From the NCBI GenBank assembly GCA_963796615.1, contig CAWCMJ010000019.1, positions 194,486 through 258,485 on the forward strand: a stretch of 64,000 nucleotides of DNA, in the 5' to 3' direction. This DNA is from an uncultured Acidobacteriaceae bacterium (GTDB lineage Bacteria; Acidobacteriota; Terriglobia; Terriglobales; Acidobacteriaceae). This document shows positions 1,271 to 45,821 of the stretch, piece by piece. Positions within the stretch are counted from its first letter, which is position 1, and each line of letters opens with the position of its first letter. The translations under genes were made by a program, and so were the position numbers. The notes under the pieces were generated by a model. It worked only from the letters and a program-made list of their open reading frames with translations, had not been told where the DNA came from and ran no database searches.

Positions 1271-2185
1271 ATGCGCCGTATTACACTCCCAATGGGGTTT
1301 CCAGACTTGCGAACCATCTTTTTCAACTCGCGCGGTCTGCGTGCCGGATGGCGTCTTCTGGTTTTCGTCGCTATCTTTGTCGCTCTCAGTTTCCTGGTAG
1401 ATGAGGTCGCTACCAGGTTCGTCCACGTCACTGAGCGATCTTTCCTTGATCCGGTTTCGTTCATCTACGCTGAACTGCAGTCAGTGGTTCTCGTCTTGAT
1501 CGCTACGTGGACCATGTCGCGCATCGAGCGCCGCCGCTTCGCTCAGTACGGCATCCCCTCCGTTCGCCGATCGTTCGGCCCTGACTTTTGGGTCGGCATC
1601 GTCTGGGGCATCGCTTCTACGTCCGCCATCATCGGCCTGATCGCCGTGTTCGGAGGATACAGCGTTAAAGGACTCGCCATTCACGGTGCTACATTGTGGT
1701 ACTTCGTTGTGGTATGGCTTGTCGCCAATCTGCTCATCGGCTTTGCCGAGGAACTCCAGTTTCGCGCCTACCTGCTGGCTACCACCGCCGACGGCATCGG
1801 ATTCTGGGCCGCGGCAATCCTGCTCTCCGTGGGCTTCGGCGCGATGCATTACTTTCTCAAGCCGCACGAGCGCTGGGAAGACTTCGCCTCCACCGCACTG
1901 CTTGGCTTGTTCCTGTGCTTTACCCTAAGGCGCACCGGCTCGCTGGCCTTCGCCATCGGATTCCATGCCGCCTTCGACTTCGCGAATTTATTTGTCTTCT
2001 CAGGTCAGAACGCCGGCGAATTCGCCGTGGGCCATCTGCTCGACACAACCTGGCACGGCCCCGATTGGCTCACTGGTGGCCTGCTCGGTCCCGAAGCCAG
2101 TTGGATGGTCTTCCCGGTGATCGCCGTCATGTTCGTTGTGTTCGCAGGGCGGTATCGAACGAGCAAGTTCCCACTTCTGGACTGA
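1271..2185 (+). CDS. CPBP family intramembrane glutamic endopeptidase (CAAX protease/Abi family)
   Basis: Motifs FAEELQFRAYL, GFGAMHY and IGFHAAFDF in a multi-TM protein. ATG at 1271 (MRRITLPMG..) is preferred over the upstream ORF start at 1157. Confidence 0.8.
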   Translation: MRRITLPMGFPDLRTIFFNSRGLRAGWRLLVFVAIFVALSFLVDEVATRFVHVTERSFLDPVSFIYAELQSVVLVLIATWTMSRIERRRFAQYGIPSVRRSFGPDFWVGIVWGIASTSAIIGLIAVFGGYSVKGLAIHGATLWYFVVVWLVANLLIGFAEELQFRAYLLATTADGIGFWAAAILLSVGFGAMHYFLKPHERWEDFASTALLGLFLCFTLRRTGSLAFAIGFHAAFDFANLFVFSGQNAGEFAVGHLLDTTWHGPDWLTGGLLGPEASWMVFPVIAVMFVVFAGRYRTSKFPLLD

Positions 2186-2263
2186 CCAACCGTACCAACG
2201 CCCGCACGGCAGCATCCGTACCTTGACAGCCTCCCGGCGGCGGGCGTAAGAACATCTCAGCTT

Positions 2264-2330
2264 GAGGGTGAAGGAGTTCACCCCGAACCGCTGGCCTGCC
2301 TTCTTGCGGGTACAGATGATGACTCCTGAC
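2264..2330 (+). promoter_or_regulatory. Candidate fluoride riboswitch (crcB RNA motif-like)
   Basis: P1 hairpin GGGUGA/UCACCC (2266-2283) has loop AGGAGU, complementary to ACUCCU (2322-2327), giving a pseudoknot. AAC-CGC, a second hairpin at 2291-2315, then UGAUG-ACUCCU-GAC follow. This resembles the remembered consensus GGCGAUGGAGUUCGCC..AAACGC..hairpin..UAAUGACUCCUAC. Deviations: GAAGG for GAUGG and UGAC for UAC. Confidence 0.5.
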
Positions 2331-2499
2331 GAGCGGAACTCGTCGCGGAGGCGTCTCCCCGCCGGGTCTCGAAGCACAACCAAGAACCGTCAGCCGCTGG
2401 ACGGGTTCGCATCACGGGCGGACAAGCTTGCTTCAGCCGGCGCAAAGTGGCTGACTTAATGCTGGTCTGCGACAATAGAAAACGCTTGCGAGACGACCC

Positions 2500-2970
2500 T
2501 TGTCGGACAGCTACAGTACGTTGAATCCCAGCCAGCGGCAGCGCCTGTTGGTCACCTGCCGGCATATTGACAGACTGCTGCGTGATGTCGAAGACACGCT
2601 GCACGCGTCCGCGTCCAAGTCTCCTTTCCCTGATTACGTCAGCGACATCTCTCCCACTCAGCAGCAGGCGATTGAAGCTGACATTGCCCGCATCCGGGCC
2701 CAGCTCCTGCAGGTACTGGCCGGCCAGTCGCTGGCTCCGCTGCCGCCGCGTATCTCGGCGGCGCACTCCATTGACGTGAGCCTCACCTTCGCGGAGATTG
2801 CCATTGCCGAACTGGCGCCGAATTACATGCGCGGGTACGGACCGGTATCGCCCGAGGCGGCGACAGACCTCGGCGGGATTGCGGAAACGCTGCAGTCTGC
2901 CGTAAAACAACTGCATCGCTACCTTTTGCAGACGCACCCTGTCGAGGGAGAGACAGTCCATGACTCATAG
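2500..2970 (+). CDS. Hypothetical, predicted all-helical protein (156 aa), first gene of the DUF190/dynamin operon
   Basis: ORF with a TTG start (no in-frame ATG near the 5' end; an alternative TTG lies at 2521). Plausible composition (IEADIARIRAQLLQVL). The antisense ORF 2278..2961 is Arg-rich junk. Confidence 0.5.
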   Translation: MSDSYSTLNPSQRQRLLVTCRHIDRLLRDVEDTLHASASKSPFPDYVSDISPTQQQAIEADIARIRAQLLQVLAGQSLAPLPPRISAAHSIDVSLTFAEIAIAELAPNYMRGYGPVSPEAATDLGGIAETLQSAVKQLHRYLLQTHPVEGETVHDS

Positions 2971-3033
2971 GACGCCGGCGCTTCTGGACCACGACGGCGG
3001 AAGCTCGCCGCGGAGTAGAAATCGAGGAGGAGC

Positions 3034-4110
3034 ATGCTTACCACCGGACCAGCCAAGAAAGTGAGCGTCTACGTCATCGAGGGCCACACCTATCACGGCA
3101 CCGCTTGTTATGCGGCCATCCTCGATTACCTGTTCTTCCGGGGCATCTCCGATGCAACCGTTACCCGCGGCATGGCCGGCTTCGGGACTGACCACAAGCT
3201 GCACACCTCGCGACTAGTGCAGGTTTCTGACCAGATGCCGATCAAGATCGAGTTCATCGAGACCGCGGAGCGGGTCGAGCAAGTCTTGCCCAAGCTGACC
3301 GAGATCGCCGCGCATGGACTGATCGAGGTGCACGATACGACGGTGATCTGCCCGTCCACCGACAAAGACAAGCTGCAAGCGGAAGTGCCCGCCGTCAAAC
3401 TCGAGTCCAAAGCCAAGATGATGCGAATCCTGATTGGCGAGCACGACCGATGGCACGACCAACCTCTTTATCACGCGCTGGTGCAGGCCTTGCGGTCGAA
3501 CGACATCGCCGGAGTCACGGTGTACCGGGGAATCCTGGGGTACGGGGCGAACCGCCGCATTCACAAGGATTCGACGCTTAACCTGTCTCACGATGCGCCC
3601 ATCCTGCTGACGGCGGTCGATAGCGAGGAGAAGCTGCGGGCGGTCATTCCGGTTCTCGACCAGATGGTGCTGCAAGGGTTGGTGGTGCTCTCCGACGTCG
3701 ATGTCATCAAGTATTCGCACGCTCAACCTCTGGCCGGAGACACTGGGGGTGCAGAAATGAAGCTGGTTGGCCAAGCCAAGATGTTGCGCATTTACTTCGG
3801 TGAGGACGACCGGTGGCAGGGGCGTCCGCTGTACCAGGCCATCGTCGAGCGCTGCCGCGAGTTGGACATTGCCGGCGCCTCGGTGTATCGCGGTTTTGAA
3901 GGCTATGGGGCGAGCACCATGATCCGCAAGTCGCATCTGTTCCGGCGGTCGTCGGATGCGCCAATTCTGGTGCAGATCGTTGACACCGCGGAGAACATCC
4001 AGCGCCTGATACCGGCATTGGACGAAATGGTAGCGGAAGGACTAATCGCCACCTCCGACGTTGAGGTCATCAAGTACGTGCATCAGCAGGGAGAGCATCC
4101 ACAGTTGTGA
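3034..4110 (+). CDS. Triple DUF190 (UPF0166, PII/GlnB-like fold) domain protein
   Basis: Three tandem copies of about 100 aa of the DUF190 signature: KVSVYVIEGHT..VTRGMAGFG; KMMRILIGEHDRWHDQPLYHALV..VTVYRGILGYG; KMLRIYFGEDDRWQGRPLYQAIV..ASVYRGFEGYG. Each ends in (E/D)V.VIKY. Confidence 0.85.
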   Translation: MLTTGPAKKVSVYVIEGHTYHGTACYAAILDYLFFRGISDATVTRGMAGFGTDHKLHTSRLVQVSDQMPIKIEFIETAERVEQVLPKLTEIAAHGLIEVHDTTVICPSTDKDKLQAEVPAVKLESKAKMMRILIGEHDRWHDQPLYHALVQALRSNDIAGVTVYRGILGYGANRRIHKDSTLNLSHDAPILLTAVDSEEKLRAVIPVLDQMVLQGLVVLSDVDVIKYSHAQPLAGDTGGAEMKLVGQAKMLRIYFGEDDRWQGRPLYQAIVERCRELDIAGASVYRGFEGYGASTMIRKSHLFRRSSDAPILVQIVDTAENIQRLIPALDEMVAEGLIATSDVEVIKYVHQQGEHPQL

Positions 4111-4889
4111 CCACGGCAAACTCCGACTCGGGGAACTGCGGACCGCCGGCGACGCTGCCGAGCATCTTCGCGCGAGAGGCGGAGATCGAGGAACTGCGAG
4201 CGCGCTTCGGCCGGCGACGGTCGTTTCTGTTGCATGGGCCCGCAGGCGTCGGCAAGACCTTATTATTGTCGGCCGTATGTCCGGAATTCCGTGATGTGCT
4301 GTGCTGCGCGCTGAATCCGACCCCGCAGGCGCTGTACAGGAACCTGGCGGGAGCGCTGTTCGCGGCGCGAGACCAAAAGATCACGAAGGCGTGCCCGGGC
4401 GGATTCGCGGCCCTGCAAGAACAGAAGTCGGCGGTGGCGTTGAAAGGCATCGTACGCGAGGCGCTGCGAAATTCCGGATACCTGCTGGTGCTCGATCACC
4501 TCGCACGCCCCTCGCAGTCGCTGGCGGCATCGATCCGCGAGTTGATGGTGGAGTGTTCCCTGCCGGTGGTCGCGGTATCGCGGTCCGCTCACATGGAAGA
4601 CGCGGGTTTCGTCTTGCCGCTGTTTCCAGATAGGGCTGAGAAATTCGCGTTGCGGAATTTCGATTCCGAAACGGCGACACGTTTTGCCGCGTGGTGTGCG
4701 CACCGCGAAGGATTGACCGCCGAAAACCTGCAGCAGTTTCTGGACAAGGTCGCGGTTTACAGCGCAGGCAATCCCGGCGCCATCGAGCACATGATTCGGC
4801 TGGCGAAATCGCCCCAGTACTCCTGCGGCGGGCAGATCAAGACGGCCCCGCTGTACATCGACTTCAAGATGGCGATGGTCAGTCAATGA
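4107..4889 (+). CDS. AAA-type ATPase (P-loop NTPase, ORC/Cdc6-like)
   Basis: Walker A LLHGPAGVGKTLLL and Walker B-like LLVLDH. The GTG start overlaps the upstream stop (GTGA at 4107-4110). Confidence 0.7.
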   Translation: MTTANSDSGNCGPPATLPSIFAREAEIEELRARFGRRRSFLLHGPAGVGKTLLLSAVCPEFRDVLCCALNPTPQALYRNLAGALFAARDQKITKACPGGFAALQEQKSAVALKGIVREALRNSGYLLVLDHLARPSQSLAASIRELMVECSLPVVAVSRSAHMEDAGFVLPLFPDRAEKFALRNFDSETATRFAAWCAHREGLTAENLQQFLDKVAVYSAGNPGAIEHMIRLAKSPQYSCGGQIKTAPLYIDFKMAMVSQ

Positions 4890-6634
4890 GCTCCGATCCG
4901 GCCGCCAACCTGCCACGGGTGAATGACCCTGCAGTTTCCACCCCGGCTGCGACCGATGGGCAATCTCTCAACCGGCTGGCGGAAGTCGCCGATCAACTCG
5001 GCGAAAGCGCGATCGCCGCCAACATCCGGCAGCTCGCGACCAGGGTCCACGAAGGCCGCTTCTTCGTGGCTTGCGTCGGCCAGTTCAAGCGCGGCAAGTC
5101 AACCCTGCTCAACGCCCTCACCGGAGAAGCCATCCTGCCGACCGGCGTGGTGCCGGTGACGGCGGTGCCCACGGTGCTTCGCTACGGCAACGCGCGATCC
5201 GCGCGTGTCCTGATTGGCGGCGCATGGAGCCCGGTGCCGGCCGAAGACCTTGCGCAGTACGTTTCCGAGGAGTTGAATCCGGAAAACTCGAAGCAGCTTG
5301 AAGGCGTCGAGGTATTTCTTCCGTCGCCGCTGCTGGCCTCGGGCATGTGCCTGGTCGATACCCCGGGAATTGGTTCGGTCTTCGCCGGAAACACCGAGAC
5401 GGCGAAGGACTTCATCCCGCAGATTGACGCCGCCATCCTGGTGGTGGGCGCCGATCCGCCCATCTCGGGCGAAGAACTCGCGCTCATTGAGGCCGTGGCC
5501 GCCAACGTTTGTGAGATTGTGATCGTGCTGAACAAGATCGACCGCGTTTCCCTGGCGGATCGAAAAGAAGCGTCGGCATTCGCCCGCAAGATTCTGCGGA
5601 CGCGGCTGAAAAAGCCCGTGGTTCGCATCTATGAGGTCAGCGCGCTCAACCGCTTGAACAGCTCAAACACCGGCGACGACTGGAGCGCGCTGCTCTCGGA
5701 CCTCGCCGCCCTCGCCGCCGGCTTCGGCCAGGCCATGACGCGTTCGGCCGCCGAGCGCGGGCTTCGCCGCTTTTCGGCTTCCCTGCAGCGTTCCATCGCC
5801 GAACGCCGCCGCGCATTGCACGAGCCGATCGCGGCCTCCGAGCAGCGCATGGTAACGCTGCGGGCAACGCTGGACGAGGCCGAGCAATGGCTGCGCGATC
5901 TGGGCACGCTCTTTTCGGCGGAACAGTTGCGGCTCTCCAACGCACTGCTGGCGCGCCGCAAAGAGTTCTTACGAAGTGCGCTGCCGCAGGCGAGAAACGA
6001 ACTCACGCTCGAATGCAATGGAGTCACAACGGCGTTTGGCCCGGCACGACGACGCGAAATGCTGGCCCTGGCACAGGGCGTCGCGCGCCGCCACGTCATG
6101 CCCTGGCTAGACAACGAGGAGACACAGGCCGAAGAGCTCTACGGTGCGGTCACGCAGCGCTTCGTCAATCTGGTGAATGGTTTACTGCAGCGGATCGCCG
6201 AAGAGCAGTCCGATTGCTTCTGCAATTTGCCCAAGTCTCTGGAAACCGAACAGGGCTTCCGCATCCGCTCCCGCTTTTATTTCCAGGACATGATCGGCAT
6301 CGCGCAGCCGGCGTCGCCGCTCATCTATGTGTCGGACGTGCTGCTCGGGATTCTCGGCATACGCTATTTTTTCCGGAAGTCCGCCAACAACTTCCTCGAG
6401 CTCTTGATGGATACCAATGCCTCGCGCGTCCAGGGCGATGTGGAACAGCGGGTAGTCGAGAGCCGCCAGCGACTGGAGTTCGAAGTGCGCAAACTGCTTC
6501 GCGAGGTAAGCACCTCTGCCGAGCAGGCCCTAACCACGGCGCGGGCGCTCGTGGACGCAGGCAGTACTGCCGTAGAAACTGAGCTTGCGCGCCTTCGGGG
6601 CCTCAAACAACAGATCGCGGCCGCCGCCGCGTGA
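4886..6634 (+). CDS. Dynamin-like GTPase (bacterial dynamin-like protein)
   Basis: G1 GQFKRGKSTLLNAL, G3 LVDTPGIGS, G4 LNKID, and a long helical C-terminal stalk. The ATG at 4886 overlaps the ATPase stop (ATGA). The upstream part of ORF 4691..6634 is an out-of-context extension. Confidence 0.8.
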   Translation: MSSDPAANLPRVNDPAVSTPAATDGQSLNRLAEVADQLGESAIAANIRQLATRVHEGRFFVACVGQFKRGKSTLLNALTGEAILPTGVVPVTAVPTVLRYGNARSARVLIGGAWSPVPAEDLAQYVSEELNPENSKQLEGVEVFLPSPLLASGMCLVDTPGIGSVFAGNTETAKDFIPQIDAAILVVGADPPISGEELALIEAVAANVCEIVIVLNKIDRVSLADRKEASAFARKILRTRLKKPVVRIYEVSALNRLNSSNTGDDWSALLSDLAALAAGFGQAMTRSAAERGLRRFSASLQRSIAERRRALHEPIAASEQRMVTLRATLDEAEQWLRDLGTLFSAEQLRLSNALLARRKEFLRSALPQARNELTLECNGVTTAFGPARRREMLALAQGVARRHVMPWLDNEETQAEELYGAVTQRFVNLVNGLLQRIAEEQSDCFCNLPKSLETEQGFRIRSRFYFQDMIGIAQPASPLIYVSDVLLGILGIRYFFRKSANNFLELLMDTNASRVQGDVEQRVVESRQRLEFEVRKLLREVSTSAEQALTTARALVDAGSTAVETELARLRGLKQQIAAAAA

Positions 6635-6851: not shown

Positions 6852-6892
6852 GTGGCCACTATATTGACATTTGGTGGCCACTTCGGTATATT
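6852..6892 (+). promoter_or_regulatory. Sigma70-like promoter (TTGACA-17 nt-TATATT) bracketed by two GTGGCCAC palindromes
   Basis: TTGACA at 6864-6869 and TATATT at 6887-6892 with a 17-nt spacer. The palindrome GTGGCCAC sits at 6852-6859 and 6874-6881. AGGAG at 6911-6915 precedes the ATG at 6923. Confidence 0.55.
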
Positions 6893-6922
6893 TGATTTGG
6901 AATTGCAGTCAGGAGATTTGTT

Positions 6923-7351
6923 ATGGATATCGACTTTCTATCGGCGGTTCGCTCCCTGTCATCCTTGCGGCAGGAACCAGAGCTTGAAAACCGCCTCTCC
7001 GAATTGCTCCAAAACACTTCAGGCAACGCTCCCTTGACCATCAAGGGCGCTCGGGATAAGTTCAGTGCGGTCAATAGTATGGCAAAACGCGGACGGATCA
7101 TGATTATAAAAGGGAGGCCGGGAGAGGAAACGGTCATTGTCTCTATCAAGTCCCTCGCTGCGTTGATCCGGGCGGCATCTGCCAACTTGAGCTTCGCCGA
7201 TGCGCTTGACGCTGCCGGATTTCAACCTGCGGGGCAGCGACTTATACAGAGCGAGGGCTTCAAGCGTGACGACAACCTCGTACTCAAGTCGCAACCGGAC
7301 GAGGCCGGCGAATTGAATACGGGAGAGCTTGCAGCGGGCGCCGAAAACTAG
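6923..7351 (+). CDS. Phd/YefM-like antitoxin-family protein with N- and C-terminal extensions (142 aa)
   Basis: The core LTIKGARDKFSAVNSMAKRGRIMIIKGRPGEETVIVSIKSLAALI resembles the Phd/YefM fold signature (..ITR.G.P.AVLVS.eeyeal). Good SD. First gene behind the promoter. Confidence 0.55.
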   Translation: MDIDFLSAVRSLSSLRQEPELENRLSELLQNTSGNAPLTIKGARDKFSAVNSMAKRGRIMIIKGRPGEETVIVSIKSLAALIRAASANLSFADALDAAGFQPAGQRLIQSEGFKRDDNLVLKSQPDEAGELNTGELAAGAEN

Positions 7352-7362
7352 GCAGTTGCCGT

Positions 7363-7794
7363 ATGATTTACTTGCTCTCAACCCAATCTCTGCTCGATTT
7401 AGTCACCGGGGAAGTCCTAATGACGACTTGGCTGCGAGGGATACCCTTGCAGCCGGTCGAAATCAGCACCGTGTCCATTGGCCGCGTTCTGGAAACGATC
7501 CGGAAGGTCGAGAACATCGCCGCCCGGAAGCACTATGAGCGGCAGCTTTCCATTATCGTGACCGCTGCCAACCACATTCAGGGCGTGGTACCGTTCGATG
7601 AGGATGCGGCTAAAATCTGGTCCGAGTTGCAGGGCCTGACGCTAAAATATACTCTGCCCGACGGAACCATGACCGACTTGAGCAGCGAGTCGCGCATGGT
7701 CGTTGCCACCGCGCTCGCTCGCGGCGCGACGCTGGTCGAGGCCCAGCAACCCTATCACCAGTCCATTGAGCGCTTGACCATCGAAAGCCCATGA
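7363..7794 (+). CDS. PIN-domain (VapC/FitB-like) protein, apparently lacking canonical acidic catalytic residues
   Basis: MIYLLSTQSLL (compare ..LLDTNV..), V..WL, VVPFDEDAAKIWSEL (compare ilpFD..aA..wa.L), and SRMVVATALARGATLVE (compare D..IAAtAl.hg..LvT.N). By eye the D/E/D/D positions read S/R/E-or-S/none. Confidence 0.6.
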   Translation: MIYLLSTQSLLDLVTGEVLMTTWLRGIPLQPVEISTVSIGRVLETIRKVENIAARKHYERQLSIIVTAANHIQGVVPFDEDAAKIWSELQGLTLKYTLPDGTMTDLSSESRMVVATALARGATLVEAQQPYHQSIERLTIESP

Positions 7795-8798
7795 CTTCTG
7801 ATCTCCAAATCACTGGTCCAGAGGTGCGCCCGGATCCCGCTCCTCCACCTTTCCAGATCTTGTGTCTTTCCGGCGGTGGTTATCGGGGCCTTTATACCGC
7901 TGCGCTTCTTGAGGAACTCGAAAAAGAGGAAAATGCGAACAAGTCGCTCTCCAAGGTTTTCGACCTTATCGCGGGCACTTCGATCGGCGGCATTCTCGCG
8001 ATTGGATTGGCTGCTGGGATCCCCGCAAAGACCCTACGCGAGTCGTTCGAAAAAAGCGGCAGCGCCATCTTCCCGCGTTCTCTTAAGGTTCTTGGCGTTC
8101 CAGTGTTTCCGCGTTTGGGTAGTGGGATGCTGTTCAGCAAGTATGGTGCAGATGGGCTCCGAGCGACAATTGAGGCGGTTCTCGGCAGCACCGTTTCCCT
8201 TCGTCCCTTAAAAGATCTGAAGGAGAAAGTACTCATCGCGAGTGTCGATGTTACCAACAGTGGTCCGAAGCTCTTTGGCATCGATGGGGCAGATTCTGCC
8301 ACTCCACTGCTTGACATCGCCCTCGCAACTTCCGCCGCTCCCACTTATTTTCCTGAACACCGGATTGACCAGAATATCTACGTTGACGGCGGACTGATTG
8401 CCAATGCACCCGATATCATCGCCTTGATGCATACTTTGCAGCGCGAACCTTCGGCGCAAATCCAAATGCTCAGCATTGGGACAGTCGGTGAATTGGGCGG
8501 AGAAGCCTCGCGTGCAGCGAACCGCCGTGGCTGGCTGCTACGGGGCAAGGGATTGGTGGATCTCACTCTGGCAGCGCAGGAGAAGCTCTCGATCAGCCTC
8601 ACTGCGAATTTCCTTGGCCAGAATTACATCCGTCTCGATGCCAACCCATCCCAGGACCAGCAGAAGGCGATCGGGCTGGACCGAACTGACCAGGAGGCTA
8701 CCGACACTCTCAAGGCGCTGGCCCGCAAGACTGCCGAAGACGGACTCAAGCAGCACCAGGCCAAACTCCGTGCAATGCTCAATCGCACGGCCAAGTAA
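7791..8798 (+). CDS. Patatin-like phospholipase
   Basis: Oxyanion hole LSGGGYRG, nucleophile elbow GTSIGG, and catalytic Asp in YVDGGLIANAP. The ATG overlaps the stop of the PIN-like gene (ATGA at 7791-7794). Confidence 0.85.
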   Translation: MTSDLQITGPEVRPDPAPPPFQILCLSGGGYRGLYTAALLEELEKEENANKSLSKVFDLIAGTSIGGILAIGLAAGIPAKTLRESFEKSGSAIFPRSLKVLGVPVFPRLGSGMLFSKYGADGLRATIEAVLGSTVSLRPLKDLKEKVLIASVDVTNSGPKLFGIDGADSATPLLDIALATSAAPTYFPEHRIDQNIYVDGGLIANAPDIIALMHTLQREPSAQIQMLSIGTVGELGGEASRAANRRGWLLRGKGLVDLTLAAQEKLSISLTANFLGQNYIRLDANPSQDQQKAIGLDRTDQEATDTLKALARKTAEDGLKQHQAKLRAMLNRTAK

Positions 8799-45433: not shown

Positions 45434-45821
45434 CGGCAGATGCGCCGTGGAAGATCATGCTTCGGCATGAATCCGGCGCATCAGGGATGCCCGACGGAAA
45501 TTACTCGCAAGTAACCGCCACTTCCGCGCGAAGGTCACCTTTGTCTTGGTCTCTGGTCGCCCACCCAGTTGGCGAAAGAGTCATCTAGACGGCCGATCCC
45601 TCATTCTCAAATTCGCCAATAAGCCATTAATTATGATATAGTTAAAAAAGATATTGCCAGCCAATTCCAGTCATCTACGGCAATCGGCCTTACCTCGTTC
45701 ATCCCAGAAAATTTACCAATTTACCACTTTTGTTTCATTGTCCTGCCACGACTAACGTGTATAGTAACTATATTGAAGATTACGTTGATTGAGGATTACT
45801 GTGTCGTATAGTCGCACTTAC

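Follow-up and report, generated by a model that had tools for sequence, protein, structure and literature searches.

The stretch analysed here, referred to as the window, comprises 64,000 nucleotides (nt) of contig CAWCMJ010000019.1 from an uncultured Acidobacteriaceae bacterium, and carries an operon of four genes that encode a helical protein (w156), a triple-DUF190 protein, an AAA ATPase and a dynamin-like GTPase. The operon is preceded by a structured leader in which an initial annotation, made from the letters, had seen a candidate fluoride riboswitch. The aptamer at positions 2266–2327 very probably belongs to the fluoride (crcB-motif) riboswitches, RF01734. It follows a putative sigma-70-type promoter and most likely works as an ON switch; as part of the same well-supported explanation, the four genes would be the unit that it regulates. 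This riboswitch class has long been known, and the identification is a correct annotation rather than a discovery. The points of interest are a two-hairpin platform without a terminator, a clade-wide U7-to-A variant of the aptamer, and an operon that has lost exporter and antiporter yet has kept the switch.

The leader and its aptamer

The leader contains the following features, all on the forward strand:

2223–2228 (+): −35-like hexamer TTGACA, with TTGAC(T/A) at the equivalent place in nearly all of 45 orthologous loci
2247–2252 (+): −10-like hexamer TAAGAA after an 18-nt spacer, agreeing with three of six consensus positions
2266–2327 (+): predicted fluoride riboswitch aptamer, within an RF01734 match spanning 2258–2335
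2266–2283 (+): P1 hairpin, stem 2266–2270/2279–2283, seen in the letters and in the cmscan alignment
2291–2315 (+): second helix (P3), CUG/CAG, internal loop, CCUGC/GCGGG, from cmscan and orthologues
2322–2326 (+): pseudoknot 3′ strand ACUCC, pairing with 2273–2277, five of five pairs Watson–Crick
2319–2354 (+): hairpin A (anti-aptamer), AUG.CUCCUGACGAG with CUCGUCG.GGAG.CGU, 14 pairs, from the minimum free energy (MFE) fold and the RNAalifold consensus
2330–2371 (+): hairpin B (alternative to hairpin A), 2330–2350 pairing with 2355–2371 (CUCCCCGCCGGGUCUCG, 'element 3')
2372–2499 (+): rest of the leader, where the start region of a Na+/H+ antiporter gene, since lost, survives in decayed form

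The Rfam covariance model for RF01734 matches 2258–2335 (+) over its full length with 34.4 bits (cmscan), so that the fluoride riboswitch reading of the initial annotation passes the gathering score of 34.0, narrowly. Searched against 4227 families, the whole window gives an E-value of 8.8e-6, and the leader by itself one of 1.4e-7; this is the sole credible Rfam match and the sole fluoride match in the 64 kb, permissive filters included. A 93-nt stretch folds at z = −3.95 relative to shuffles.

The letters from which the motif had been put together (hairpin, loop, ACUCCU, joiner, second hairpin and A-UGAUG) are all present where the initial annotation had placed them. P1 consists of GGGUGA (2266–2271), AGGAGU (2272–2277) and UCACCC (2278–2283), which makes six pairs possible, as had been claimed; in the family model, however, the stem has 4–5 bp (2266/7–2270 with 2279–2282/3), while A2271 and U2278 belong to the loop and its tertiary contacts. 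P1 (2267–2270/2279–2282 plus 2266/2283) closes an 8-nt loop, as expected of the class. Numbered as in Thermotoga petrophila (bioRxiv 10.1101/2022.05.19.492696), this loop carries A2271 (A6), A2272 (U7, changed to A), G2273 (G8) and the 5′ strand of the pseudoknot (2273–2277). The joiner CGAACCGC (2284–2291) leads into the second helix, found between AACCGC and UGAUG at 2291–2315, and A-UGAUG (2316–2321) is followed by ACUCCU (2322–2327), which is complementary to the P1 loop. Around the pseudoknot 3′ strand lie U2317, A2319, U2320, G2321 and U2327, the equivalents of U38, A40, U41, G42 and U48. Compared with the T. petrophila sequence, which fits the numbering used here, three pseudoknot pairs of the window differ by changes on both sides.

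Compared with RF01734, whose structural reference is the T. petrophila aptamer (PDB 4ENC), the window has the same order of P1, loop GA.GGAGU, AACCGC joiner, variable helix and UGAUGACUCCU tail, a 5-bp pseudoknot, A6, G8, U38, A40, U41, G42 and U48, and a 5′-untranslated-region (5′-UTR) position, with crcB, Na+/H+ antiporter and universal stress protein (Usp) genes in its relatives. It differs in that U7 is A, the pair equivalent to G24–C37 is G·A, the joiner has one extra base, UGAC stands for UAC after the pseudoknot, and the second helix is long and interrupted. Two of these, GAAGG for GAUGG and UGAC for UAC, had been listed as deviations at the outset and are seen in the alignment, but GAAGG turns out to be clade-wide and no private deviation of the window.

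Orthologous loci were collected by scanning representative genomes with the DUF190 protein of the window, which yielded 55 loci (L followed by a number), nearly all of them from metagenome-assembled genomes (MAGs) of Acidobacteriaceae or 'Candidatus Korobacteraceae', with protein identities of 53–86%. Using window positions 2258–2351 as an nhmmer query, a same-strand aptamer homologue was found upstream of the DUF190 genes in 46 of the 55 loci, at a distance of 0.6–4.7 kb; most of the other loci probably have the aptamer beyond the fetched flank (L008 and L012, for example, begin inside antiporter/Usp genes). The alignment of these homologues, A1, holds 45 sequences, and all gene counts below refer to 47 aptamer-bearing sequences including the window. 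Orthologous copies score 36.2–37.0 bits with RF01734; L053 and L054, both distant copies, do not reach the threshold. In A1 the core of the aptamer never changes, in contrast to the flanks and the second-helix loop. All five pseudoknot pairs and the P1 pairs are standard in 45 of 45 orthologues (99–100% of cells, against 42–50% paired in slid-partner controls), and the complementarity between loop and 3′ strand, on which the proposal had been staked, is thus kept throughout. In orthologues the second helix reads CUGUCC/GGACAG; 98.9% of its cells are paired, and its loop varies. Every clade-invariant position is kept in the window.

The same comparison points to a promoter. Judged by spacing from the −35 hexamer and from P1, TAAGAA in the window has its counterparts in TATCAC (L003) and TATCAA/TATGAA (other orthologues), where such hexamers follow TTGAC(T/A) after 17–18 nt. 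A consensus promoter scan returned nothing in 2100–3100 because the −10 element is weak, and the promoter was found by locus comparison alone. Positions 2223–2252 are therefore treated as a putative promoter, with a predicted transcription start at about 2259–2261, some 6 nt before the aptamer. The first start codon is a TTG at 2500, and the transcribed leader is probably about 240 nt long; the 314-nt leader given initially is the whole intergenic gap, not all of which is likely to be leader since the conserved promoter lies within it. The aptamer has the 5′-UTR position expected of its class, which in relatives lies before genes against fluoride toxicity (CrcB in 44 of the 47 orthologous operons, a Na+/H+ exchanger and Usp in some) and in the window before DUF190 and its partner genes.

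The operon and its relatives

The operon consists of four genes:

2500–2970 (+): w156, a 156-amino-acid (aa) all-helical protein, the first gene and a real one, with 162 homologues
3034–4110 (+): triple-DUF190 (PII-like) protein, 358 aa, Pfam PF02641 in three stretches (E 1e-97)
4107–4889 (+): AAA_16/STAND-like ATPase, Pfam PF13191 (E 6.5e-10), its start GTG overlapping the DUF190 stop (GTGA)
4886–6634 (+): dynamin-like GTPase DLP-B, Pfam Dynamin_N (E 3.5e-26), its start ATG overlapping the AAA stop (ATGA)

The last three genes thus overlap start-to-stop. The 162 homologues of w156 are all unnamed proteins of Terriglobales/Korobacteraceae; in relatives w156 either stands alone or is the N-terminal domain (145 aa) of a dynamin-like protein of ~690 aa, and it is fused to Dynamin_N in 19 loci. 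It has no sequence match in Pfam, NCBIfam, PADLOC or the PDB, and its AlphaFold model, four helices with a pLDDT of 76.7, has no PDB fold match (Foldseek, E ≤ 0.001). The PDB relatives of DUF190, 2DCL and 1O51, are hypothetical proteins without annotation. In every orthologue examined, the DUF190 region is split between a two-domain gene (241 aa) and a one-domain gene (117 aa), whose stop and start overlap in ATGA, whereas in the window one extra base (CTGGCCGG versus CTGCCGG/TTGCCGG), ~30 nt before the stop, fuses them (3709–3760, junction near 3733–3757). The fused product could be a real single-chain pseudo-trimer, or it could reflect a sequencing or assembly error. DLP-B has a weak match to the PADLOC model LeoA (E 1.4e-11).

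The genes found in the 47 aptamer-bearing sequences are as follows:

CrcB: 44 of 47
DLP-B: 34 of 47
w156 domain: 33 of 47
AAA: 22 of 47
Full-length DLP-A: 19 of 47

In these 44 sequences, CrcB (124–145 aa, PF02537, E 7e-30) is encoded between the riboswitch and DUF190, which bears out the initial suggestion that a DUF190 operon is coherent with fluoride sensing; in L041 the riboswitch lies directly before crcB. Relatives also carry, in the same interval, genes for a HEAT-like protein, a metallophosphoesterase, a universal stress protein and the ~690-aa dynamin-like protein, and in L014 and L015 a Na+/H+ exchanger of 406 aa counted from its real start. Fluoride exporters and Na+/H+ antiporters are the genes most commonly found with fluoride riboswitches (PMC11139923), and the crcB/antiporter context in relatives therefore speaks strongly and independently for fluoride as the GAAGG variant's ligand. 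Three of the 47 operons, those of the window, L003 and L055, are without crcB. A crude motif scan, short of a rigorous exclusion, gave no open reading frame (ORF) with co-located signatures of a CLC-type exporter.

Behind the platform, orthologues keep AGGAGC-N8-ATGGAGAACGTGTGGGT, the start of either an intact antiporter of 406 aa (L014 and L015, at 2242–3468) or stubs of 8–104 aa. The truncated forms have 104, 93 or 85 aa (loci including L018, 1645–1959, and L055, 3432–3713), and many loci have stubs of 8–30 codons.

Further fluoride riboswitches lie a few kb from the cluster in L004 (10455–10525, −), L039 (10204–10274, −) and L049 (8626–8704, +). The copies in L004 and L039 are of the canonical GAUGA form, and the separate L049 copy is of the GAAGG form. 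The extra copy in L004 precedes genes for an ABC-transporter ATPase and a 308-aa unknown protein, that in L049 genes for a 189-aa membrane protein and a MutS-related protein. The MAG MFD05377.bin.1.126 has two whole-cluster copies on different contigs (L004 and L007), with DLP-A 99–100% identical. L034 is labelled Verrucomicrobiia and L049 Acidimicrobiaceae; their genes are 76–79% identical to Acidobacteriaceae ones, which suggests mis-binning or transfer. In the long operon form, a ~205-aa Cys-rich protein (CPIC…CDWC) is encoded between crcB and DUF190 (L007, 4374–4991, and equivalents; 14 loci); it is absent from the window and has no Pfam, NCBIfam or PADLOC match.

A two-hairpin platform and its proposed read-out

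Directly behind the pseudoknot, the initial annotation had noted a GACGAG/CUCGUC hairpin at 2328–2345. The two arms are present (2328–2333 and 2339–2344), although the end had been set one base too far, and they form the core of the longer, conserved hairpin A, itself part of a conserved two-hairpin platform. Hairpin A has the family form AUGACUCC-U-GACGAG … CUYGUC-GC-GGAGUCAU and ties up the pseudoknot 3′ strand, U41 and G42 included; its MFE is −16.6 kcal/mol in the window (family median −20.2), 97% of cells are paired in the 45 orthologues, and one position is GU in 22, AU in 15 and GC in 8 of them. Behind it, the window has GCGUCUCCCC and the orthologues have GUCUCCCGG. Hairpin B, formed with element 3 (family form CUCC-CGGCGAG-UUUCC), has an MFE of −17.2 kcal/mol in the window and a family median of −19.7; among 44 distinct sequences, 90% of its cells are paired, compared with 29–60% when slid, and one pair is UA in 20, UG in 16 and CG in 7. 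The two hairpins are mutually exclusive and both are conserved, and their balanced modelled median energies are as expected of a bistable switch.

In the crcB riboswitch of Bacillus cereus, a transcriptional switch with an intrinsic terminator, the platform likewise overlaps the pseudoknot 3′ strand, and a hairpin thus competes with the ligand-bound aptamer; the expected ON logic is also the same. The window differs in that its competing hairpin has no U tract and in that there is a second conserved alternative, hairpin B. The fluoride riboswitches of Pseudomonas syringae eriC and Burkholderia pseudomallei are translational and served as translational controls in PMC12667848. The window resembles these in lacking a terminator, which makes a sequestering-hairpin platform plausible, but its ribosome-binding site lies outside the aptamer-adjacent hairpin, and a three-element relay would be needed (A, B and then a translation-initiation region (TIR) 25–130 nt away), one that lacks statistical support across loci.

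The proposed mechanism can be put as follows. A transcript from the putative promoter would begin about 6 nt before the aptamer. With Mg2+ and fluoride, loop nucleotides GGAGU (2273–2277) would pair with ACUCC (2322–2326), and the pocket would be closed by the A2319/U2327 and A2271/U2317 contacts. The bound aptamer would hold the pseudoknot 3′ strand out of hairpin A, and the freed 2330–2350 would pair with element 3 (2355–2371) to give hairpin B. Without fluoride, hairpin A would form and leave element 3 free. Of this scheme, the family membership and the conservation of the aptamer, the conserved and mutually exclusive pairing of the two hairpins and the tie to crcB in relatives are shown. 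For the read-out step, which we infer, our tentative preference is that free element 3 occludes the TIR of the first gene (2364–2371 with 2489–2499) and that hairpin B relieves this occlusion.

A translational read-out finds some backing in models and in relatives. The stretch 2489–2499 (CGAGACGACCC), which abuts the start codon, is complementary to 2364–2371 of element 3; the duplex between element 3 and the TIR of the window has −16.1 kcal/mol, as against −9.9 for non-cognate pairs, and a summed pair probability of 9.4 in the OFF model. In ancestral-looking loci, the Shine–Dalgarno sequence and start of the antiporter lie 25–30 nt after element 3 and are paired with it in the modelled OFF state. 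For 14 of 18 loci, the models give a ribosome-binding site that is modestly more exposed in the ON state (mean 0.42 to 0.53). Antiporter stubs, as vestigial upstream ORFs, end between −24 and +15 nt from the next start in L002, L018, L019, L024 and L055 (L050 is identical to L002, whose stub ends at −24), and this proximity suggests coupling of the stub to the next gene in the five loci. There is a likeness between the first-gene start region 2499–2506 (CUUGUCGG) and the hairpin A 3′ strand (CUCGUCGCGG), and GACGAG (2328–2333) can therefore pair instead with the start codon region in thermodynamic models; this is probably coincidental, and the start region differs in orthologues.

It is important to set out what speaks against the proposed switch. 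The RF01734 score exceeds the gathering threshold by a margin of 0.4 bit. The first model pair of P3, G2290·A2316, is non-standard and marked as such by cmscan, and U7 is replaced by A. Covariation in P1 and the pseudoknot, which the initial annotation had proposed to look for, is not found in the 45 sequences because the pairs never vary in the clade. Hairpin A of the window is the second weakest of 45. Neither hairpin A nor hairpin B is followed by a U tract, as noted from the start and confirmed by a scan of 2100–3100 (+) for terminator-like sites, so the platform is not an intrinsic terminator made of a G+C-rich hairpin and U tract. A tblastn search for crcB anywhere in the 64 kb found none. 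As to the translational read-out, complementarity between element 3 and its cognate TIR is no better than between non-cognate pairs (permutation test, p = 0.70 for n = 18 and p = 1.0 for n = 10), and when the whole leader of the window is modelled thermodynamically, the ON state does not free the TIR, long-range pairings being dominant; whole-leader two-state folding is also noisy for L015. Finally, the module is kept whatever gene follows, with the start 90–570 nt away. Because of these points for and against, TIR occlusion is held with somewhat less than even confidence, and a stop at the level of transcription is regarded as a serious, if lesser, possibility.

Such a stop would leave the aptamer and the fluoride-driven change between hairpins A and B as described; hairpin A would bring about an early end of the transcript, either through Rho, acting on the exposed C-rich element 3 and the leader, or as a hairpin stop without a U tract, and hairpin B would be the antiterminator. 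This agrees with the conservation of aptamer, A and B as a unit before first genes as different as those for the antiporter, w156/DLP-A, CrcB, the HEAT-like protein and the phosphoesterase, 90–570 nt away, with the lack of cognate-specific complementarity between element 3 and the TIR, and with the loss of a recognisable Shine–Dalgarno sequence and start after the platform in about half of the loci, the window included. The missing U tract is weak evidence against termination because canonical hairpin-plus-U-tract sites are not enriched in the window (58 versus ~51 expected), and behind hairpin A the composition leans slightly towards C over G (29% versus 23%). However, no U tract is present, this C>G bias is small, element 3 has only about 20 nt and the rut-like composition is weak; moreover, a simple terminator needs no hairpin B, yet hairpin B is conserved.

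It is unlikely that the switch is a relic that regulates nothing useful here after the loss of the antiporter gene and of crcB from the operon. Such decay could account for an operon without crcB, as in 3 of 47, for the decayed antiporter start region, for hairpins A and B at the weak end of the family range and for the poor −10 element. Against it stand the identities between the window and its closest relative, L003:

Aptamer: 88.7%
Platform (hairpins A/B): 88.6%
Upstream flanking non-coding DNA: 59%
Rest of the leader: 56%
w156 coding region: 69.5%
DUF190 coding region: 78.4%

Aptamer and platform are more alike than the flanks and than the coding regions, and the riboswitch element is therefore under purifying selection in the lineage of the window itself. 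In addition, the clade-invariant positions are all kept, and the two hairpins are still balanced at −16.6 versus −17.2 kcal/mol.

More improbable still is that the fold is the same but the ligand different or altered, with the U7-to-A change and the G·A closing pair re-tuning or changing the specificity; an A2272–U2327 pair could then replace the A40/U48 linchpin. U7 is one of the five pocket nucleotides (A6, U7, G8, U41 and G42), and A takes its place, as A2272 in the window and likewise across all 45 orthologues; the GAAGG form also recurs in the separate L049 copy. The other four pocket equivalents (A2271, G2273, U2320 and G2321) are conserved, and both linchpins, A2319/U2327 (A40/U48) and A2271/U2317 (A6/U38), are present and invariant to judge from sequence. 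Mutation of U41, which the window keeps, abolishes the B. cereus response (PMC11077080). Against an altered ligand, the pocket is made of backbone phosphates (bioRxiv 10.1101/2022.05.19.492696), not of bases, and the change of U7 is probably tolerated for that reason. The GAAGG form stands before crcB in 44 of 47 operons, and canonical GAUGA copies occur in the same genomes. The L049 copy of the GAAGG form precedes a MutS-related gene, and MutS-related genes are among those reported with fluoride riboswitches.

A chance likeness, or a coding block in the form of a leader peptide that starts at the ATG behind hairpin A or of an overlapping ORF, could draw on GGAGTCATG directly after hairpin A in most orthologues and on ORFs 2262–2459 (+) and 2278–2961 (−) that overlap the site, but has a negligible probability given the E-value of 8.8e-6, ORFs from the ATG that run for 8–54 codons in differing frames (TCTCCC versus TCCCC length variants), an ATG missing in 9 of 45 sequences including the window, a GGAG only 2 nt from the ATG, and a GUCAU accounted for by its pairing with AUGAC in hairpin A. 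A leader peptide 'MSPASF…', or upstream-ORF attenuator, from the same ATG was considered and rejected, its frame and length being variable and the ATG absent in those nine.

Implications and neighbouring features

The riboswitch serves as a functional label: it indicates that a conserved Acidobacteriaceae cluster belongs to the fluoride response. The cluster encodes functionally uncharacterised DUF190 proteins, a pair of dynamin-like GTPases, an AAA ATPase and a helical domain without known relatives. In the window, this cluster has been kept under the switch even without the gene for the CrcB channel, an uncommon regulon for a known class. It is conceivable, though doubtful at present, that the pair of dynamin-like GTPases, the AAA/STAND-like ATPase and the PII-like DUF190 pseudo-trimer (2+1 domains, fused to three here) constitute a fluoride-response module that acts in fluoride tolerance by itself, since it is still under riboswitch control here although the exporter gene has left the operon; that a module of this make-up has not been described before is part of the same cautious proposal. 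A literature search returned no paper connecting dynamin-like proteins to fluoride riboswitches or to crcB. If the proposal held, the module might repair or remodel membranes, or control a channel whose gene lies elsewhere. DUF190 is also encoded, as flJ, in fluorinase clusters (PMC9173684). The label opens both DUF190 and bacterial dynamin-like proteins to experimental test, and the conserved two-hairpin platform, which has no U tract, makes a compact and manageable system for examining riboswitch action in a phylum whose platforms are unstudied.

Downstream of the operon, the next transcription unit (6864–8798) opens with a near-consensus promoter-like TTGACA-17-TATATT (6864–6892), followed by two small ORFs without a family match (6923–7351 and 7363–7794) and a gene for a patatin-like phospholipase (7791–8798), which matches the PADLOC 'Effector Phospholipase' models strongly (E 1e-78); on account of this match, the unit may be a defence module. 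Further along the window, three sigma-70-like promoter matches (+) that share the −10 hexamer TATAGT lie within 200 nt (45613–45812), and the 40–60 kb segment has 10 promoter-like sites versus 3.9±2.1 expected.

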